In this document: piece after piece, positions 5,326 through 63,688 of the stretch
Numbering within the stretch: position 1 is the stretch's first letter
Layout of the letters: every line of letters begins with the position of its first letter
Assembly: GCA_003602515.1 (NCBI GenBank)
Contig: QQSB01000003.1
Coordinates: forward strand, 15,388-79,387
Source: Candidatus Poseidoniales archaeon
GTDB taxonomy: Archaea; Thermoplasmatota; Poseidoniia; Poseidoniales; Thalassarchaeaceae
Reading direction: 5' to 3'
Length of the DNA stretch: 64,000 nucleotides
Notes under the pieces: generated by a model
The model's input: the letters and a program-made list of their open reading frames with translations, nothing else
The model's database searches: none
What the model was told of the DNA's origin: nothing
Translations under genes and position numbers: made by a program

Positions 5326-6936
5326 TTAGTTATTTTTTCCCCATCGGCGAATGGTTTGCATCAACTTGCGCAACTCTTGAGGCGTGTACGTCCGGCTTTG
5401 GCTATAAGCCAATTCCACGAGACGTGGATCTCCAATCATCGCCTGAACTTCCGGCGGAGGCCTCATTGCCATCTCGTCCCGAGTCAAATCATGGTGAATC
5501 CTCACCTTGGTAAGAAGCGCCCTCCTCACTCTGTCCCTATACGTTGCCGGGTCTAGCTTATCGGGACGCTGGTTGAATTTTGTTAGGTCGAAAACGTGCC
5601 TCCAGTTCTCCTTTTCAGGAACTACCATCATGGCTACGAGCAGAAGAAGGGCTACATTGAGGACGACTAACCACTTCAGGAACTGGTTGGATGTAAGCAG
5701 AACGACCGTACCCATAGTCTGAACAAATGGTTCCGAGAGAACCCCAGTAACGTGCCTGCTCTCATCAAAAACAACTTGGAAGTTGGCCGGATCTGATCTT
5801 ATTGGGGCGTTAAGCTCTACATTGTCGAATTCCATCATGTCGTAGACTAGAAGCGTGAAAAACCTCTCATTACCTCCCCAATCATTGTTATTCAGGATCT
5901 CCTGGGTCCAGCAGTTGTTCCGAGTGTAATCTCCGATAGCCGAGCAGTCCTGGCTCAGACCTTGATCCTGAGCAACCGCTAAATCCCATAGCAGGTTCGA
6001 GAAAGCCTCGTCATCAGAGACGAAAACTATGCTTCCAGTTACTTCCAATTCCCCCACTCCAGCTGAGAATGCCCCCCTGCTCTCATCAGCAACCTTGTCG
6101 AGGACCTTTATCCCCGGGTAGTCGAACCTCATCATTAGCCTCAGATCGCCAGTAGCCGGATTCGCTGGATTTGTAGGATCGCCATCGCCAGCTCTGTCAA
6201 TAAAGGCGGAAGGAGACGCTCTACCTAGAGTCATTATTTTTCTGTGCTCCGGATCTTCAATATCCCTGTCTGTAGGTTCGAACATCATTCCAGTTGGGCC
6301 TTTGTACATCACTGGTAGCCTACAATCATTCAAACCATCTGGGTTCTGGATTTGGAATGATGTACAACCCTGCATTAGCGCTCCGGGGGACATATCGTCT
6401 ATGTTCTGATTTACCGGAGATGCGCTCCAGACGTTCCCCCAGTCGATGAATTGTTCAGATTGTTCAGTGAAAACCCAATGCTGCTTATCGTCTTTCAATG
6501 GCGCATCCATGTACCTGACGCCGAATAAAATGGCAAGGTTATGGGCTTGCGTGTTATCAGCTGCAACAATCACCTTCCCTCCCTTTTCCGTGACAAAGCG
6601 GAAAATCTCATCCGCTTCAGTTTGATCAATTGGCTTTTCAGGTGCGATTATCGTCAGAAGTGTACGATGTGGATCTTTCCAGTCATTGACGAGCATAGGT
6701 GTGGACATAGTATTGGCGACATAGTATCCATCGTCCCTGTTCTCCACGTACTCGCCTTCGAAACTCTCTCTCATATCGGATAATTGCCCCAGCCCGCTAT
6801 CATCGTAAGCCGAGTAATTTGTTGATTTTCCGACTACGAAGAACATGGGCAGAACTAGCAGCATAATCGATGTAATTACCAAGGCATACATTACATTCCT
6901 GTTGAATCGATCTTCGCCATCCACTTCATCTGGCAT
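5326..6936 (-). CDS. DUF4350-like membrane-anchored protein
   Basis: N-terminal TM, an extracytoplasmic domain with IIAPEKPIDQTEADEIFRFVTEKGGKVIVAADN (GldG/DUF4350-like), a second TM near residue 420 and a basic cytoplasmic tail. It lies upstream of MoxR, as in many MoxR-DUF58 operons. Confidence 0.55.
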   Translation of the reverse strand: MPDEVDGEDRFNRNVMYALVITSIMLLVLPMFFVVGKSTNYSAYDDSGLGQLSDMRESFEGEYVENRDDGYYVANTMSTPMLVNDWKDPHRTLLTIIAPEKPIDQTEADEIFRFVTEKGGKVIVAADNTQAHNLAILFGVRYMDAPLKDDKQHWVFTEQSEQFIDWGNVWSASPVNQNIDDMSPGALMQGCTSFQIQNPDGLNDCRLPVMYKGPTGMMFEPTDRDIEDPEHRKIMTLGRASPSAFIDRAGDGDPTNPANPATGDLRLMMRFDYPGIKVLDKVADESRGAFSAGVGELEVTGSIVFVSDDEAFSNLLWDLAVAQDQGLSQDCSAIGDYTRNNCWTQEILNNNDWGGNERFFTLLVYDMMEFDNVELNAPIRSDPANFQVVFDESRHVTGVLSEPFVQTMGTVVLLTSNQFLKWLVVLNVALLLLVAMMVVPEKENWRHVFDLTKFNQRPDKLDPATYRDRVRRALLTKVRIHHDLTRDEMAMRPPPEVQAMIGDPRLVELAYSQSRTYTPQELRKLMQTIRRWGKNN

Positions 6937-15224: not shown

Positions 15225-16034
15225 CTAGCCCAATGCTACATCTAGCATCATCATTATTGTGAAACCAATCATTACTCCCATGGTTGCAATGTCTCCATTT
15301 TTCCCCCTATGGGCCTCAGGTATCAACTCTTCAACTACTACGAAAATCATAGCGCCAGCAGCGAATGCAAGCGCATAGGGAAGAATCGGATCTACATAGA
15401 CTATGGTCGCTGCACCCAATACGGCTGCAATTGGCTCTACCATTGCAGATAACTGGCCCCACCAGAAACTCTCTTTCTTGCTCAAACCCTCTCTTCTTAG
15501 TGGGACTGAGACTGCAGCTCCTTCGGGGAAGTTCTGAATTCCTATTCCGATAGTCAATGCAATCGCTGCTCCAAAACCATCTCCAGTTGCAGCAGCCCCA
15601 AAGGCAACTCCCACTGCTAGTCCTTCGGGTACGTTATGCAGTGTGATGGCAGAAATCAGAAGCTTACTCCTATGCCAACTGGTCTTGATCCCCTCAGTCT
15701 CTTCTGGAGGGGCTCCCGGGTGAAGGTGGGGGAGGTAGGCATCGATAACCCTCATGCACACGCCACCCATTACGAATCCGAATGCCGCCGGAAGTACCTT
15801 CGAAAGACCTTCTCCATCCGTTTGATCGATCGCCGGACTTAGAAGCCCGAAGCAACTCGCTGCAATCATCACACCTGCAGCGAAACCCAGCATTCCATCC
15901 AGTGCCTTTCTGTGTATTTCGTGAAAGAAAAATACCAGACCTGCTCCTGCTGCGGTCATGAACCAGGTGAACATACCCGCTATCAAGGCCTGCTCAATAG
16001 GGCTAAAACCATCGAGCAGCTCTTCAGGACTCAT
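15225..16034 (-). CDS. zupT: ZIP-family divalent metal transporter
   Basis: HNVPEGLAVG and QNFPEGAAV signature helices. About 8 TM segments. Confidence 0.85.
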   Translation of the reverse strand: MSPEELLDGFSPIEQALIAGMFTWFMTAAGAGLVFFFHEIHRKALDGMLGFAAGVMIAASCFGLLSPAIDQTDGEGLSKVLPAAFGFVMGGVCMRVIDAYLPHLHPGAPPEETEGIKTSWHRSKLLISAITLHNVPEGLAVGVAFGAAATGDGFGAAIALTIGIGIQNFPEGAAVSVPLRREGLSKKESFWWGQLSAMVEPIAAVLGAATIVYVDPILPYALAFAAGAMIFVVVEELIPEAHRGKNGDIATMGVMIGFTIMMMLDVALG

Positions 16035-37684: not shown

Positions 37685-38350
37685 TCAGTGACAAGCCACC
37701 CCGTACTTCTTCAGCCGCCAGTAGTTGTAAGGCCACGGGGTCAGGAATCCAGCGATTAGCATAGGCGCAATAACCCACCAAGTAAGCTTAGCACCACCAG
37801 TTAGAACCAGATCGACTATATTCATTGCAGCCTCCATGGATAACATCGAGATTAGCGACATCCCTATGGCAACTCGAAATGCCTCGTAAAGCGGCATCTG
37901 ACTTAGGAGAATGAATGTCTCAAGGGCAATAGAAGTCATAATTCCATTGAACATTGCCAGGGCCATTATCATCATCGCACTCCAACCAGTTTCTGTGAAC
38001 ACGAATTGGAAAGCGGCAATAGTTCCGAAGTCTCCGATACTACACCCAATTAGGCACCATTTTGTATTGTTAGCCGACTGCCTCCAGACCGCCCTGTCTC
38101 TCCAATTGAACTCCTCTCCACGACCATCGACAGTGTAGCCCACTGAACGGATAGCATCACCTAACTCCTCGCTGGTTGCACCCTCGTGACTGACTTCTGC
38201 ACTCCCATCCTGGTGGCTAACTGCCGCTGTGATTACTCGAGGTAGATCCTCCAGGGCGCTCTTTACTCGATTCGAGCAACCATCGCAAGTCATCCCTCCG
38301 ACTTCTAGTCGGATTGTCTCTGCCATACTTCCAACTGGTGCATAGGACAT
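37685..38350 (-). CDS. Heavy-metal-associated (HMA) domain fused to a DUF4396-like membrane domain
   Basis: VGGMTCDGCSNRVKSAL (MxCxxC ferredoxin-like HMA), then the membrane part WCLIGCSIGDFGT... with about 4 TM segments. Confidence 0.75.
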   Translation of the reverse strand: MSYAPVGSMAETIRLEVGGMTCDGCSNRVKSALEDLPRVITAAVSHQDGSAEVSHEGATSEELGDAIRSVGYTVDGRGEEFNWRDRAVWRQSANNTKWCLIGCSIGDFGTIAAFQFVFTETGWSAMMIMALAMFNGIMTSIALETFILLSQMPLYEAFRVAIGMSLISMLSMEAAMNIVDLVLTGGAKLTWWVIAPMLIAGFLTPWPYNYWRLKKYGVACH

Positions 38351-61435: not shown

Positions 61436-62410
61436 ATGGTGGAAAATAGGCTAATCGAGCACACCGGGTCCGAGTTCCCGATAATCTGCGGGGCAATGTA
61501 CCCATGTTCGAATCCTGAGCTGGTCGCAGCAGCAGCAAATGGCGGGGGGATGGCCATCATTCAACCAGTCTCTTTGACTGTGGTACACGGCTTTGACAAG
61601 CCCGACCTGAATCAGGGCCTGATAGATGGCATCCGTTACATCAGGTCCAAGACGAATAGGCCGATTGGGTTCAATGCCCTGATAGAGAAGGGCAACGACA
61701 AGTACCTGCAGAGGATGTCCGAATGGATTGACATCGCGCTAGACGAGGGAATCAGGTTCTTCGTGACCTCCCTGGGGAAGCCAGACTGGGTATGCGATAG
61801 GGTGCACTCAAGGGGTGGCTTCGTCTACCACGATGTAACGACCCGATTCCATGCCGAGAAGGGGGTCGAGTGTGGTGTTGATGGTCTGATTTGTGTCAAC
61901 GACAGGGCAGGAGGGCATCTGGGTACCGGCAGCATGGAGGAGATGTACGAATCCCTCTCCGACCTAGGATTGCCCCTGATTTGCGCTGGGGGCATTGGCA
62001 GTGAGGAGGAGTTGACAGATGCTCTCAAGATCGGCTATGAGGGAGTCCAGATGGGGACTCGGTTCATCGCTACCGAAGAGTGCTCTATGCCAGAAGGATA
62101 CAAGCAGGCCATAGTGGGAGCAAGTGAGGGCGATATCGACTGGACTGTCAAGCTCACTGGAATCCCTGTCTCGGTCATCAAGACCCCAAAGTACCGCAGG
62201 GAGAATCCATGGTTCGTCCGAGCCCTCCTATCAGGCCGATTCAAGCATAGGACCCGATGGCTGATGAACACGATATCATTCAGACGCTGGAGGAGGATGT
62301 CCAGCGGGGCGAAGTCATCCGACATTTGGTCGGCAGGCAAGAGTGTGGAGACTATCGAAAGCGTTGAGTCGGCGACCACGATAATGAGGAGGCTCGGTGA
62401 GGCCCTATGA
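61436..62410 (+). CDS. Nitronate monooxygenase / FabK-like FMN oxidoreductase (NMO family)
   Basis: PIICGAM, VNDRAGGH, ICAGGIG and GVQMGTRF motifs. Confidence 0.85.
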   Translation: MVENRLIEHTGSEFPIICGAMYPCSNPELVAAAANGGGMAIIQPVSLTVVHGFDKPDLNQGLIDGIRYIRSKTNRPIGFNALIEKGNDKYLQRMSEWIDIALDEGIRFFVTSLGKPDWVCDRVHSRGGFVYHDVTTRFHAEKGVECGVDGLICVNDRAGGHLGTGSMEEMYESLSDLGLPLICAGGIGSEEELTDALKIGYEGVQMGTRFIATEECSMPEGYKQAIVGASEGDIDWTVKLTGIPVSVIKTPKYRRENPWFVRALLSGRFKHRTRWLMNTISFRRWRRMSSGAKSSDIWSAGKSVETIESVESATTIMRRLGEAL

Positions 62411-62728
62411 GAACAAAACGGGCCACTTCCTCTTAATGGCTCTGAAAATCACCCTGGAGACTACCATAGAAGTGAGTAGGAAGGCAACTGATGCCCATAG
62501 AGGGGCTTCACCGCTAGTCGCGAGCAGATAGGTTACAGCCAGAATTCCTGCTCCGTAGACCGCGCGAAATGCAGAGAAGACTAACAAAGCCCGCAACGCT
62601 TTGCTTCCTAGAACTCCTCGATTCAATGTAGTGCTCGGGGTCTCGTCCATCAGATCATTGCCAAGCAGCCATTCCCTACACTTAGTCGTGACCTTGTCGA
62701 AAACTGGTAGTACTTGGCACCACATCAA
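62405..62728 (-). CDS. Small membrane protein (2 TM)
   Basis: 107-aa ORF with two hydrophobic helices. Convergent 6-nt overlap with the NMO gene stop. Confidence 0.45.
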   Translation of the reverse strand: MMWCQVLPVFDKVTTKCREWLLGNDLMDETPSTTLNRGVLGSKALRALLVFSAFRAVYGAGILAVTYLLATSGEAPLWASVAFLLTSMVVSRVIFRAIKRKWPVLFS

Positions 62729-62790
62729 ACTCCTAACTATGGAAATATTAATTTGAATACCTTAAAATAATAATATGCTTTCCAAACATC

Positions 62791-62856
62791 ATGCCTTGTG
62801 ACTGCTGCGACTGCGACCCCTGTGGTCCTACTTGTTCGTGCGATGATTGCTGTTAA
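62791..62856 (+). CDS. Cys-rich 21-aa micro-protein MPCDCCDCDPCGPTCSCDDCC (metallothionein-like candidate)
   Basis: ATG...TAA read directly from the DNA. 9 Cys and 5 Asp in 21 residues. It is a GC-rich codon block inside an AT-rich spacer. TATA-like TTAAAATAATAATAT lies 15-30 nt upstream. Too short for the supplied ORF track. Confidence 0.45.
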   Translation: MPCDCCDCDPCGPTCSCDDCC

Positions 62857-62917: not shown

Positions 62918-63109
62918 TCAGTTTACTCCGAATTCAGAGTCTAGTTTGTTCATTGTATCCTGAATATCCTCTACAATCTCGAAAAGTGAATTATCCTTGG
63001 TGTAAACGAGTAGTTTGCCACCGCCCTCAGTTTCCTGGTATGCACATATTGCATCCATCCTTATTCTCGTCATTCCGCCCTCAGTCATTGCCTTGATCCA
63101 ACCTGTCAT
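62918..63109 (-). CDS. Small hypothetical protein
   Basis: 63-aa ORF in an AT-richer patch. No secure motif. Confidence 0.35.
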   Translation of the reverse strand: MTGWIKAMTEGGMTRIRMDAICAYQETEGGGKLLVYTKDNSLFEIVEDIQDTMNKLDSEFGVN

Positions 63110-63241: not shown

Positions 63242-63688
63242 ATGGGTGAGAGGAGGTGCGAATTCGATGGCTGTAATGCATTGGAGTTTAGGACATCCGG
63301 GTATTGCCTCCGACATAAGGGAGGTTTGCCGTACGAGAAATCTCGTTACTCCGAAAATCCCGAGAAGAAGCGCCCGGAATCGGTAATCAGAACTGATCCT
63401 TTGCTGATACCCAAGATTGCTTTGGGCTACGTCCCATTTGTCTGGTTTCTGTTGTTTCTAACATCATTGGGCTCAGATACATTCGCCGGATACTATCTTT
63501 TCATCTACAGTGGCATATGTCTAGTGTTTCTACTGCCGCTTTACGCGGTCTATCTTGTCCGGCTCACTTGGCAACGATTCAAAGACGGGACGCTTACCTC
63601 TTCTGTCTCAATATTGCATATTCTCTCGATTGTCGTCCCATTGGCCTGGTTACTGTTATTTGCAACATTTAGCGGCTCTCCAGCCTGA
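63242..63688 (+). CDS. Membrane protein with an N-terminal CxxxGC...GxCxxH zinc-finger-like motif
   Basis: RCEFDGCNALEFRTSGYCLRHK followed by about 4 TM helices. Confidence 0.5.
   Translation: MGERRCEFDGCNALEFRTSGYCLRHKGGLPYEKSRYSENPEKKRPESVIRTDPLLIPKIALGYVPFVWFLLFLTSLGSDTFAGYYLFIYSGICLVFLLPLYAVYLVRLTWQRFKDGTLTSSVSILHILSIVVPLAWLLLFATFSGSPA

Follow-up and report, generated by a model that had tools for sequence, protein, structure and literature searches.

A short open reading frame (sORF) of 21 codons lies in a 64,000-nucleotide stretch (the window) of contig QQSB01000003.1, from a Candidatus Poseidoniales archaeon of the Thalassarchaeaceae. The sORF occupies a 189-nt spacer between the reading frames of a 107-residue protein and a 63-residue protein, both on the opposite strand (Table 1). 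Its 66 bases, ATG CCT TGT GAC TGC TGC GAC TGC GAC CCC TGT GGT CCT ACT TGT TCG TGC GAT GAT TGC TGT TAA, consist of ATG and twenty further codons, giving a 21-amino-acid peptide, and then TAA. A direct read of the letters agrees with what an earlier note on the window had described: a frame with this position, strand, sequence and translation, forming a GC-rich block in an AT-rich spacer (GC of 0.53 in the frame against 0.30 in the remaining spacer) and preceded by a TATA-like sequence, TTAAAATAATAATAT, at 62762-62776, 15-29 nt before the ATG. The limits of the Cys-rich stretch coincide exactly with the ATG and the stop codon. Nine cysteines in 21 residues is the maximum of all stop-free 21-residue windows in the six frames, the next independent region having six. 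None of 200 first-order Markov simulations of the window gave eight or more; their highest value, seven, was reached four times.

Table 1. Features of the sORF locus. Positions are those of the window; positions in brackets are relative to the sORF ATG.
Feature	Position	Strand	Remarks
21-codon ORF	62791..62856 (stop included)	+	encodes MPCDCCDCDPCGPTCSCDDCC; Cys at 3, 5, 6, 8, 11, 15, 17, 20, 21
Conserved upstream block	62737..62774 (-54..-17)	+	38 nt; consensus AATTAGAGATATTAATTTGGATACCTCTAAATAATAAT; fixed distance to ATG
Second AT-rich element, TATTAAT	62746..62752 (-45..-39)	.	highest information content in the block
TATA-like element, TTAAAATA	62762..62769 (-29..-22)	+	family consensus TCTAAATA; position fits the AT-rich peak of the lineage
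Conserved TC	62789..62790 (-2/-1)	+	1.3-1.5 bits; pyrimidine-purine junction, initiator-like
Stem-loop TTGCTGT-TAAGTTAT-ACAGCAA	62847..62868	+	stop codon in loop; in minimum-free-energy and centroid folds of the window transcript
m107, 107-aa small membrane protein, divergent neighbour	62405..62728	-	probable ATG at 62725; no Pfam family
63-aa protein (p63), convergent neighbour	62918..63109	-	window clade only; no Pfam family

Relatives of the sORF were sought in metagenomes with a degenerate DNA pattern for the core of the peptide only, C-C-x-C-[D/E]-P-C-G-P-x-C-x-C, which matched 44 loci. At 43 of them an ATG stands three codons upstream, followed by Pro-Cys, and the frame is exactly 21 codons long with a C-terminal C-C and then a stop. 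Neither this start, nor the length, nor the ending is demanded by the search pattern. The in-frame sequence preceding the ATG differs between clades in an unrelated manner. One match (L109, 3512-3583, minus strand; GCPCCPCDPCGPCCPCGTCGCGA) was rejected as an orthologue, as it sits on a contig of 61% GC in a frame that has no ATG and lacks the architecture. That contig is apparently not marine archaeal, and the frame is another very Cys- and Pro-dense short frame, probably unrelated.

The pattern of substitution is that of a translated gene. Among 28 distinct nucleotide versions, third positions vary in 19 of the 21 codons and first and second positions in five each, with the first- and second-position changes falling mostly in three tolerant codons (x4, x7 and x14). 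Mean pairwise differences are 0.037, 0.050 and 0.397 at codon positions 1, 2 and 3, and 0.61 in the flanks. The ratio pN/pS is 0.06 overall, 0.15 on the codons left free by the pattern, and 0.03 on those codons when the three tolerant ones are also set aside. All three stop codons (TGA, TAA and TAG) are used, at one fixed site.

Further orthologues were found by synteny and are free of ascertainment by the pattern. These are L013, L017, L137-L140 and L144-L146, all of which keep the nine cysteines. The L013 and L017 peptides (MPCDCCDCDPCGPSCSCDGCC and MPCECCACDPCGPSCSCDGCC) come from two species found through synteny of the gene for a nitronate-monooxygenase-like protein (NMO), and lie downstream of the gene for the 107-residue protein, and the peptide of L137-L140 (MPCECCDCDPCGPSCSCDGCC) was reached by walking out from a neighbouring regulator gene. 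Between L017 and the window nine codons differ, five of them synonymously, and two of these are Cys codons. The same walk led to L144-L146, which carry a diverged form, MNCECCECAPCGADCKCDGCC; it has 21 residues and the same nine Cys positions with changes at P2, D9, P13, S14 and S16. The pattern had missed this form, so the family extends beyond what the scan showed. Over the 16 peptide variants, 12 of the 21 residues are invariant (M1, the nine Cys, P10 and G12), and D18 and G19 are nearly so. The peptide remains 81-95% identical where shared neighbours have fallen to 34% (a 148-residue protein, p148), 51% (a TM2-domain protein) and 63% (SelO). The contigs L001-L012, found through the 63-aa and 107-aa neighbours, are of the same species as the window and 98.5-100% identical to it over the spacer, and are therefore uninformative on selection. 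Conservation of the frame in related genomes, which the earlier note had named as the check on its proposal, is thus observed in diverged relatives: frame, start, length, stop and nine Cys are kept, with mostly synonymous change.

Two observations would suit a frame that arose by chance, or a DNA or RNA element that does not code and is conserved for reasons other than translation: the sORF is shorter than the length limits of gene callers, and an exact look-up of the ten most frequent peptide variants (of 16) in 15 billion predicted proteins found none of them. This explanation is effectively refuted by the codon-position periodicity, the pN/pS of 0.06, the invariant ATG and the fixed stop site with three stop codons. 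RNA structure gives it no help either, since the consensus fold of the ORF (RNAalifold) has essentially no energy at -0.93 kcal/mol and indicates no conserved structure. Shuffled versions of the window transcript fold as well as the transcript itself (z = -0.97), and tRNA and Rfam scans of the window returned no match. The sORF is established as a real protein-coding gene under strong purifying selection.

As far as sampled, the sORF is specific to the Thalassarchaeaceae. When the adjacent NMO-like protein is compared with species-representative genomes, its nearest relatives, 60-98% identical, are Candidatus Poseidoniales and Thalassarchaeaceae (Marine Group II, MGII). In a viral collection no copy of the sORF was found by peptide alignment with tblastn confirmation, nor by the exact DNA pattern.

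The DNA upstream of the ATG is also conserved. A block of 38 nt is preserved without gaps over 36-40 distinct flanks, with the DNA on both of its sides randomised. Between the block and a conserved TC directly before the ATG lie 14 bases that show no conservation. The TATA-like element of the block stands at the AT-rich peak typical of ordinary genes in the lineage, which in 238 upstream regions is located at -28..-24 relative to the start codon and is the signature of mostly leaderless mRNAs. The leaderless-promoter geometry that the earlier note proposed is supported by this agreement, and the sORF mRNA is inferred to be leaderless or nearly so. In the diverged L144 form, TCTAAATA lies at the same distance from the second of two ATG codons, which favours the 21-residue reading there. 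Read from that ATG, the diverged variant has no aromatic residue or His; reading from the first ATG (MYMNC...) adds one Tyr.

In most clades an imperfect inverted repeat, AGAGATAT-N8-ATACCTCT, encloses the second AT-rich element, TATTAAT, which may be a site for a regulator or a second or bidirectional TATA box. In the window it also falls at -27..-21 of the probable ATG of the divergent 107-aa gene, and the 62-nt spacer of the window clade resembles a bidirectional promoter with two TATA-like boxes. The element is, however, also retained where the upstream gene is co-directional. A TATTAAT-like element at -42 was also considered as a general promoter feature of the lineage and rejected, an AT-rich 8-mer being present in only 3 of 16 other TATA-bearing window genes.

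The promoter block is present in full once in the window. In about 1 Mb of related DNA, a position weight matrix (PWM) for its operator part matches 41 promoters of the sORF and a single site elsewhere. A regulon search with the promoter-block PWMs found no further copy in the window and, in the related DNA, only this one isolated operator-like site, in L132. That site, at about 4768 on the minus strand (AGAGATATTGATTCGGCTACCTCT, 23.7 bits), is 3.4 kb from the sORF of its contig and has no TATA-like element after it.

Some clades add a stem-loop over the stop codon. In these the UGCUG formed by the two final Cys codons has a possible pairing partner in a CAGC(A) a few bases past the stop. A CAGC no more than 22 nt from the stop is present in 5 of 16 downstream-sequence clades, that of the window among them, against an expectation of 0.9 (P=0.0015 against shuffles). 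Equivalents occur in L013, L017, L093-type, L108 and L137, and the structure is clade-specific, not universal. No general conservation is seen across clades downstream of the sORF. Both TGT and TGC are used at each of the other Cys codons, but codon 20 reads TGC throughout the 28 nucleotide versions; its constancy may be due to pairing within this stem-loop.

Together, these parts form a compact cassette of about 125-140 nt: the 38-nt promoter block, 16 bases ending in TC, the 21-codon ORF and, in some clades, the stem-loop. The cassette is present in at least ten different neighbourhoods, and in many of them the next gene is convergent. Comparison of these sites shows that it moves between them as a unit, as an apparently independently transcribed micro-gene. 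In the window the sORF lies between m107 and p63, and in a related context between m107 and a NikR-like regulator. The largest clade has the order SIR2, sORF, MscS-like channel. Other contexts involve an SSF transporter, SMR-like and thioesterase-like genes, a hydrolase, malic enzyme and retinal-biosynthesis genes, among others; convergent downstream genes include those for p63, NikR, the thioesterase-like protein, the hydrolase and malic enzyme. Genes for maturases, for exporters or for cysteine or sulfur metabolism do not recur near the sORF over these contexts.

The variety of contexts bears on two alternative functions, of which the first is a cysteine-sensing leader peptide, where ribosome stalling on Cys codons at scarce Cys-tRNA would control the downstream gene. 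The sORF is leaderless, short, unannotated and Cys-dense like the mycobacterial polycysteine sORF attenuators (10.1101/834739), and in its largest clade a same-strand MscS-like gene follows about 60-85 nt downstream. The mycobacterial attenuators, however, lie upstream of cysteine-metabolism operons, are co-transcribed with them and work by means of stalled ribosomes and an RNA duplex. The gene downstream of the archaeal sORF differs from context to context, is often convergent and never belongs to cysteine or sulfur metabolism, and no conserved RNA structure or duplex covers its start; the stem-loop covers the sORF's own stop. Residues other than Cys (P10, G12, D18 and G19) are conserved too. 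The MscS gene was rejected as a conserved partner, because its more diverged orthologues (nearest named relatives Candidatus Thalassarchaeum) have other neighbours and no upstream sORF. Varied, often convergent contexts free of Cys-metabolism genes rule out a dedicated leader or attenuator of the mycobacterial type, and a leader peptide in the wider sense is very improbable.

The same contexts argue against a precursor of a ribosomally synthesized and post-translationally modified peptide (RiPP) of the thioether, sactionine or thiazole type. Several RiPP classes typically have Cys-rich cores, a point that the earlier note had also made of some RiPP precursors. However, 21 residues are too few for a leader or recognition sequence, and the peptide is acidic and devoid of hydrophobic residues. 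No gene for a radical-SAM enzyme, cyclodehydratase, lanthionine synthetase, protease or exporter recurs within 5 kb over the ten or more contexts. With neither a leader region nor a recurring maturase gene, the RiPP alternative finds no support and is highly unlikely.

The composition of the peptide points in another direction. It is made of nine Cys, five Asp, three Pro and one each of Met, Gly, Thr and Ser (43% Cys, 9/21), with no aromatic residue, His, Lys or Arg. Met1 is the only hydrophobic residue, and there is no signal sequence. None of the 15 core-pattern variants has an aromatic residue or His. The spacers between cysteines are [1,0,1,2,3,1,2,0], so that CxC, CxxC and CC motifs are all present. 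The peptide thus has the features by which the metallothionein (MT) class is defined: low mass, very high Cys content, CxC, CxxC and CC motifs, and no aromatic residues or His. Searches of Pfam and NCBIfam, with the vertebrate, fungal and prokaryotic metallothionein models of Pfam included, gave no family at E<=10 for any of 14 variants, and a profile of the peptide against PDB chains gave nothing at E<=10. Because no metallothionein matches in sequence, the assignment rests on composition and spacing. On these grounds the peptide is outside the known metallothionein sequence families, yet fits the compositional definition of the class.

Among known systems, one close likeness is to the Cu-metallothionein of Neurospora crassa (PDB 1T2Y, 25 residues, 7 Cys), which is likewise very short, single-domain and gene-encoded, has CxC motifs and lacks aromatic residues and His. 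Both contain an identical C-x3-C-x-C-x2-C series with a small, Gly/Ser-rich x3 (CGSGCSCSNC in Neurospora and CGPSCSCDGC in the archaeal family). When residues of the same composition are shuffled, only 1.6% of the shuffles contain this series. Homology between the two is not detectable at the sequence level. The archaeal peptide has 21 residues and 43% Cys against 25 and 28%, contains CC pairs, is Asp-rich instead of Gly/Ser-rich and belongs to another domain of life.

The beta-domain of vertebrate metallothionein (rat MT-2, PDB 4MT2) has nine Cys, as does the peptide, and shares the C-x3-C-x-C-x2-C series, again with an x3 that is small and Gly/Ser-rich; the sequences of 1T2Y and 4MT2 were confirmed against the deposited chains. 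A fish beta-domain (1M0J) starts with PCEC, as do the peptide variants that begin MPCECC. The nine thiolates of the vertebrate domain hold about six Cu(I). For divalent metals, three ions are bound through the nine thiolates (PMC3600143). Unlike the peptide, the vertebrate domain has about 30 residues, is Lys-rich and belongs to a two-domain protein, and the Pfam models miss the peptide.

Among prokaryotes, the bacterial metallothioneins (SmtA/BmtA and MymT) are likewise cytoplasmic, Cys-rich metal buffers. They have about 50-56 residues, a zinc-finger-like fold, His ligands and aromatic residues. They differ from the peptide, which has no match to their hidden Markov models. Those of marine cyanobacteria are linked to zinc homeostasis (PMC3323870, PMC12193353). 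The C(P)XCG zinc-finger micro-proteins of Haloferax volcanii are archaeal, under 70 aa, Cys-rich and often unannotated (PMC11241148). With a single C-x-x-C-G motif and nine Cys in 21 residues, the peptide falls outside that class as defined there.

From these comparisons a mode of action can be proposed. The peptide would be cytoplasmic, having no signal sequence and no hydrophobic segment, and without a hydrophobic core it would fold only around metal ions. Its nine thiolates would form a metal-thiolate cluster in the manner of metallothioneins. By analogy with the vertebrate beta-domain and the Neurospora Cu-MT, the load would be about three divalent ions (Zn or Cd) or six Cu(I), and the peptide would buffer or store soft metals with high affinity.

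Some genomic contexts are in keeping with a role in metal handling. In relatives of the window species, the NMO-m107 block leads on to a glyoxalase-like gene, then to the gene of a 143-aa regulator with a ribbon-helix-helix domain and a NikR C-terminal domain (NikR_C), and to znuABC, an operon divergent from the regulator gene. In L017, L137-L140 and L144-L146 the sORF lies between m107 and this NikR/znuABC locus, about 0.02-1 kb from the NikR-family gene. L141-L143 have the same junction without the sORF. Other genes take the place of the regulator and transporter genes in the window species, and no homologue is present in the 64 kb. The adjacency lends modest support to a metal-related role; it is modest because the three linked clades probably reflect a single ancestral position beside m107-NMO. 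The NikR-family neighbour in these clades is a candidate regulator of the sORF.

The regulator genes are at 5449-5880 (minus strand) in L017 and 6001-6432 (plus strand) in L137, with homologues P0001-P0120. The family is abundant and highly conserved in MGIIb, with 559 matches at E<=1e-10, the best 120 of which are at least 82% identical. The regulator ends in ...MRDDGCC and the peptide in ...CDGCC (CDDCC in the window), so that both have the ending D-[D/G]-C-C, which may be a shared metal-handling motif. The ZnuA-type proteins of the locus (L017 5955-8219, plus strand; L137 3453-5912, minus strand; L141 3902-5911, minus strand) are unusually long at 669-819 aa. They contain long His/Asp repeats of the HDDHDD type and EF-hand-like matches, and their genes are followed by those for ZnuC, ZnuB and AcnX. 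L014, L019, L020 and L032 have a second NikR-like paralogue, about 50% identical to the regulator that adjoins the sORF, beyond m107, with the sORF absent from the junction; the promoter of this paralogue has TGTTATTAATT at the TATA position.

An operator common to the sORF and the divergent NikR/ZnuA promoters was considered. In L017 a 12/14 match between the sORF operator and the NikR/ZnuA promoter had looked promising. The TTATTAATT core that the two promoters have in common is also the TATA region of a NikR paralogue, and over ten distinct NikR-family upstream regions the PWM scores were about -7 to +7 bits. The common operator was rejected.

Several points weigh against a metallothionein. 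Besides the lack of a matching metallothionein model or solved structure and the failure of the common operator, the metal-locus adjacency is limited to three clades that probably go back to one position, and a connection with metals is lacking in the majority of the remaining contexts, such as those with SIR2/MscS, an SSF transporter, an SMR-like protein or malic enzyme. The sORF of the window has no metal gene beside it; a ZIP-family transporter and an HMA-DUF4396 fusion are encoded elsewhere in it, as the earlier note had pointed out. Finally, five Asp and no basic residues would give a metal-thiolate cluster with a very negative charge, unlike classical metallothioneins. The lack of basic residues, with Asp invariant or nearly so, may bear on metal preference.

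The main rival to a metallothionein is another thiol- or metal-based role of the same peptide. Possible roles are those of a thiol/redox or persulfide buffer, of a minimal Fe-S site or single Zn(Cys)4 knuckle, and of a small partner that modulates another protein; the NikR-like regulator that ends in ...DDGCC, for instance, might receive metal from the peptide or be in competition with it. The one knuckle motif of C-x-x-C-G form (C8-D-P-C11-G12) together with the C17-x-x-C20 pair would suit such a role, as would the D-[D/G]-C-C ending that the peptide has in common with the neighbouring regulator. MGII also live in surface water rich in reactive oxygen species (PMC10783094). Against it, all nine Cys are invariant and not merely four, no conserved partner gene accompanies the sORF, and the ferredoxin-type CxxCxxC...CP motif is lacking. 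A role other than storage is accordingly rather unlikely, although it is less improbable than the alternatives discussed above.

The best explanation is that the sORF is a genuine, independently transcribed micro-gene and that its product is probably a miniature metal binder of the metallothionein type, as judged from sequence and by analogy. Of the metallothionein-like function put forward in the earlier note, composition, Cys spacing and, in part, the NikR/znuABC association speak in favour, and the lack of a match to known metallothionein models speaks against.

Other genes of the window and of the sORF neighbourhood complete the picture. The HMA-DUF4396 fusion (37685-38350, minus strand) and the ZIP-family transporter (15225-16034, minus strand) are 25 and 47 kb from the sORF, and the promoter block is absent upstream of both. 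m107 is conserved beside NMO in about 10 species. The 63-aa neighbour is common in identical form among marine metagenome contigs, and the index of the assembly collection has this exact sequence in 113 blocks. At 63242-63688 on the plus strand, the window encodes the 148-aa protein, which has a Cys-rich N-terminal segment, CEFDGCNALEFRTSGYCLRHK, ahead of its membrane helices. A copy with no more than 34% identity is found close to the sORF of L113.

Metallothioneins have been regarded as absent in archaea, as stated in a review of haloarchaeal metal homeostasis (PMC3600143), and a study of Thermococcus notes that this archaeon encodes none (PMC3407056). For bacteria, they are listed in only a few lineages (PMC12193353). 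In a literature search of open-access papers, neither the phrase 'archaeal metallothionein' nor any of six motif strings of the peptide was found. It is tentatively proposed, by analogy with known systems, that the peptide could be the first metallothionein of Archaea and, with 21 residues and 9 Cys, the shortest and most Cys-dense gene-encoded MT known. It would then be a lineage-specific family unrelated in sequence to known MTs and a main intracellular ligand of Zn, Cd or Cu.

The case of the sORF illustrates the amount of strongly selected coding sequence that lies below the length limits of gene callers. As it has no Lys or Arg, the peptide would also escape tryptic proteomics. If the proposal is true, it sets a new lower size limit for gene-encoded metal-thiolate peptides, and work on marine trace-metal biogeochemistry gains a definite molecule to measure. 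A conserved nine-Cys peptide in the abundant ocean archaea of Marine Group II would fill the archaeal metallothionein gap, and would bear on how these archaea cope with the scarcity or toxicity of trace metals in surface ocean water.

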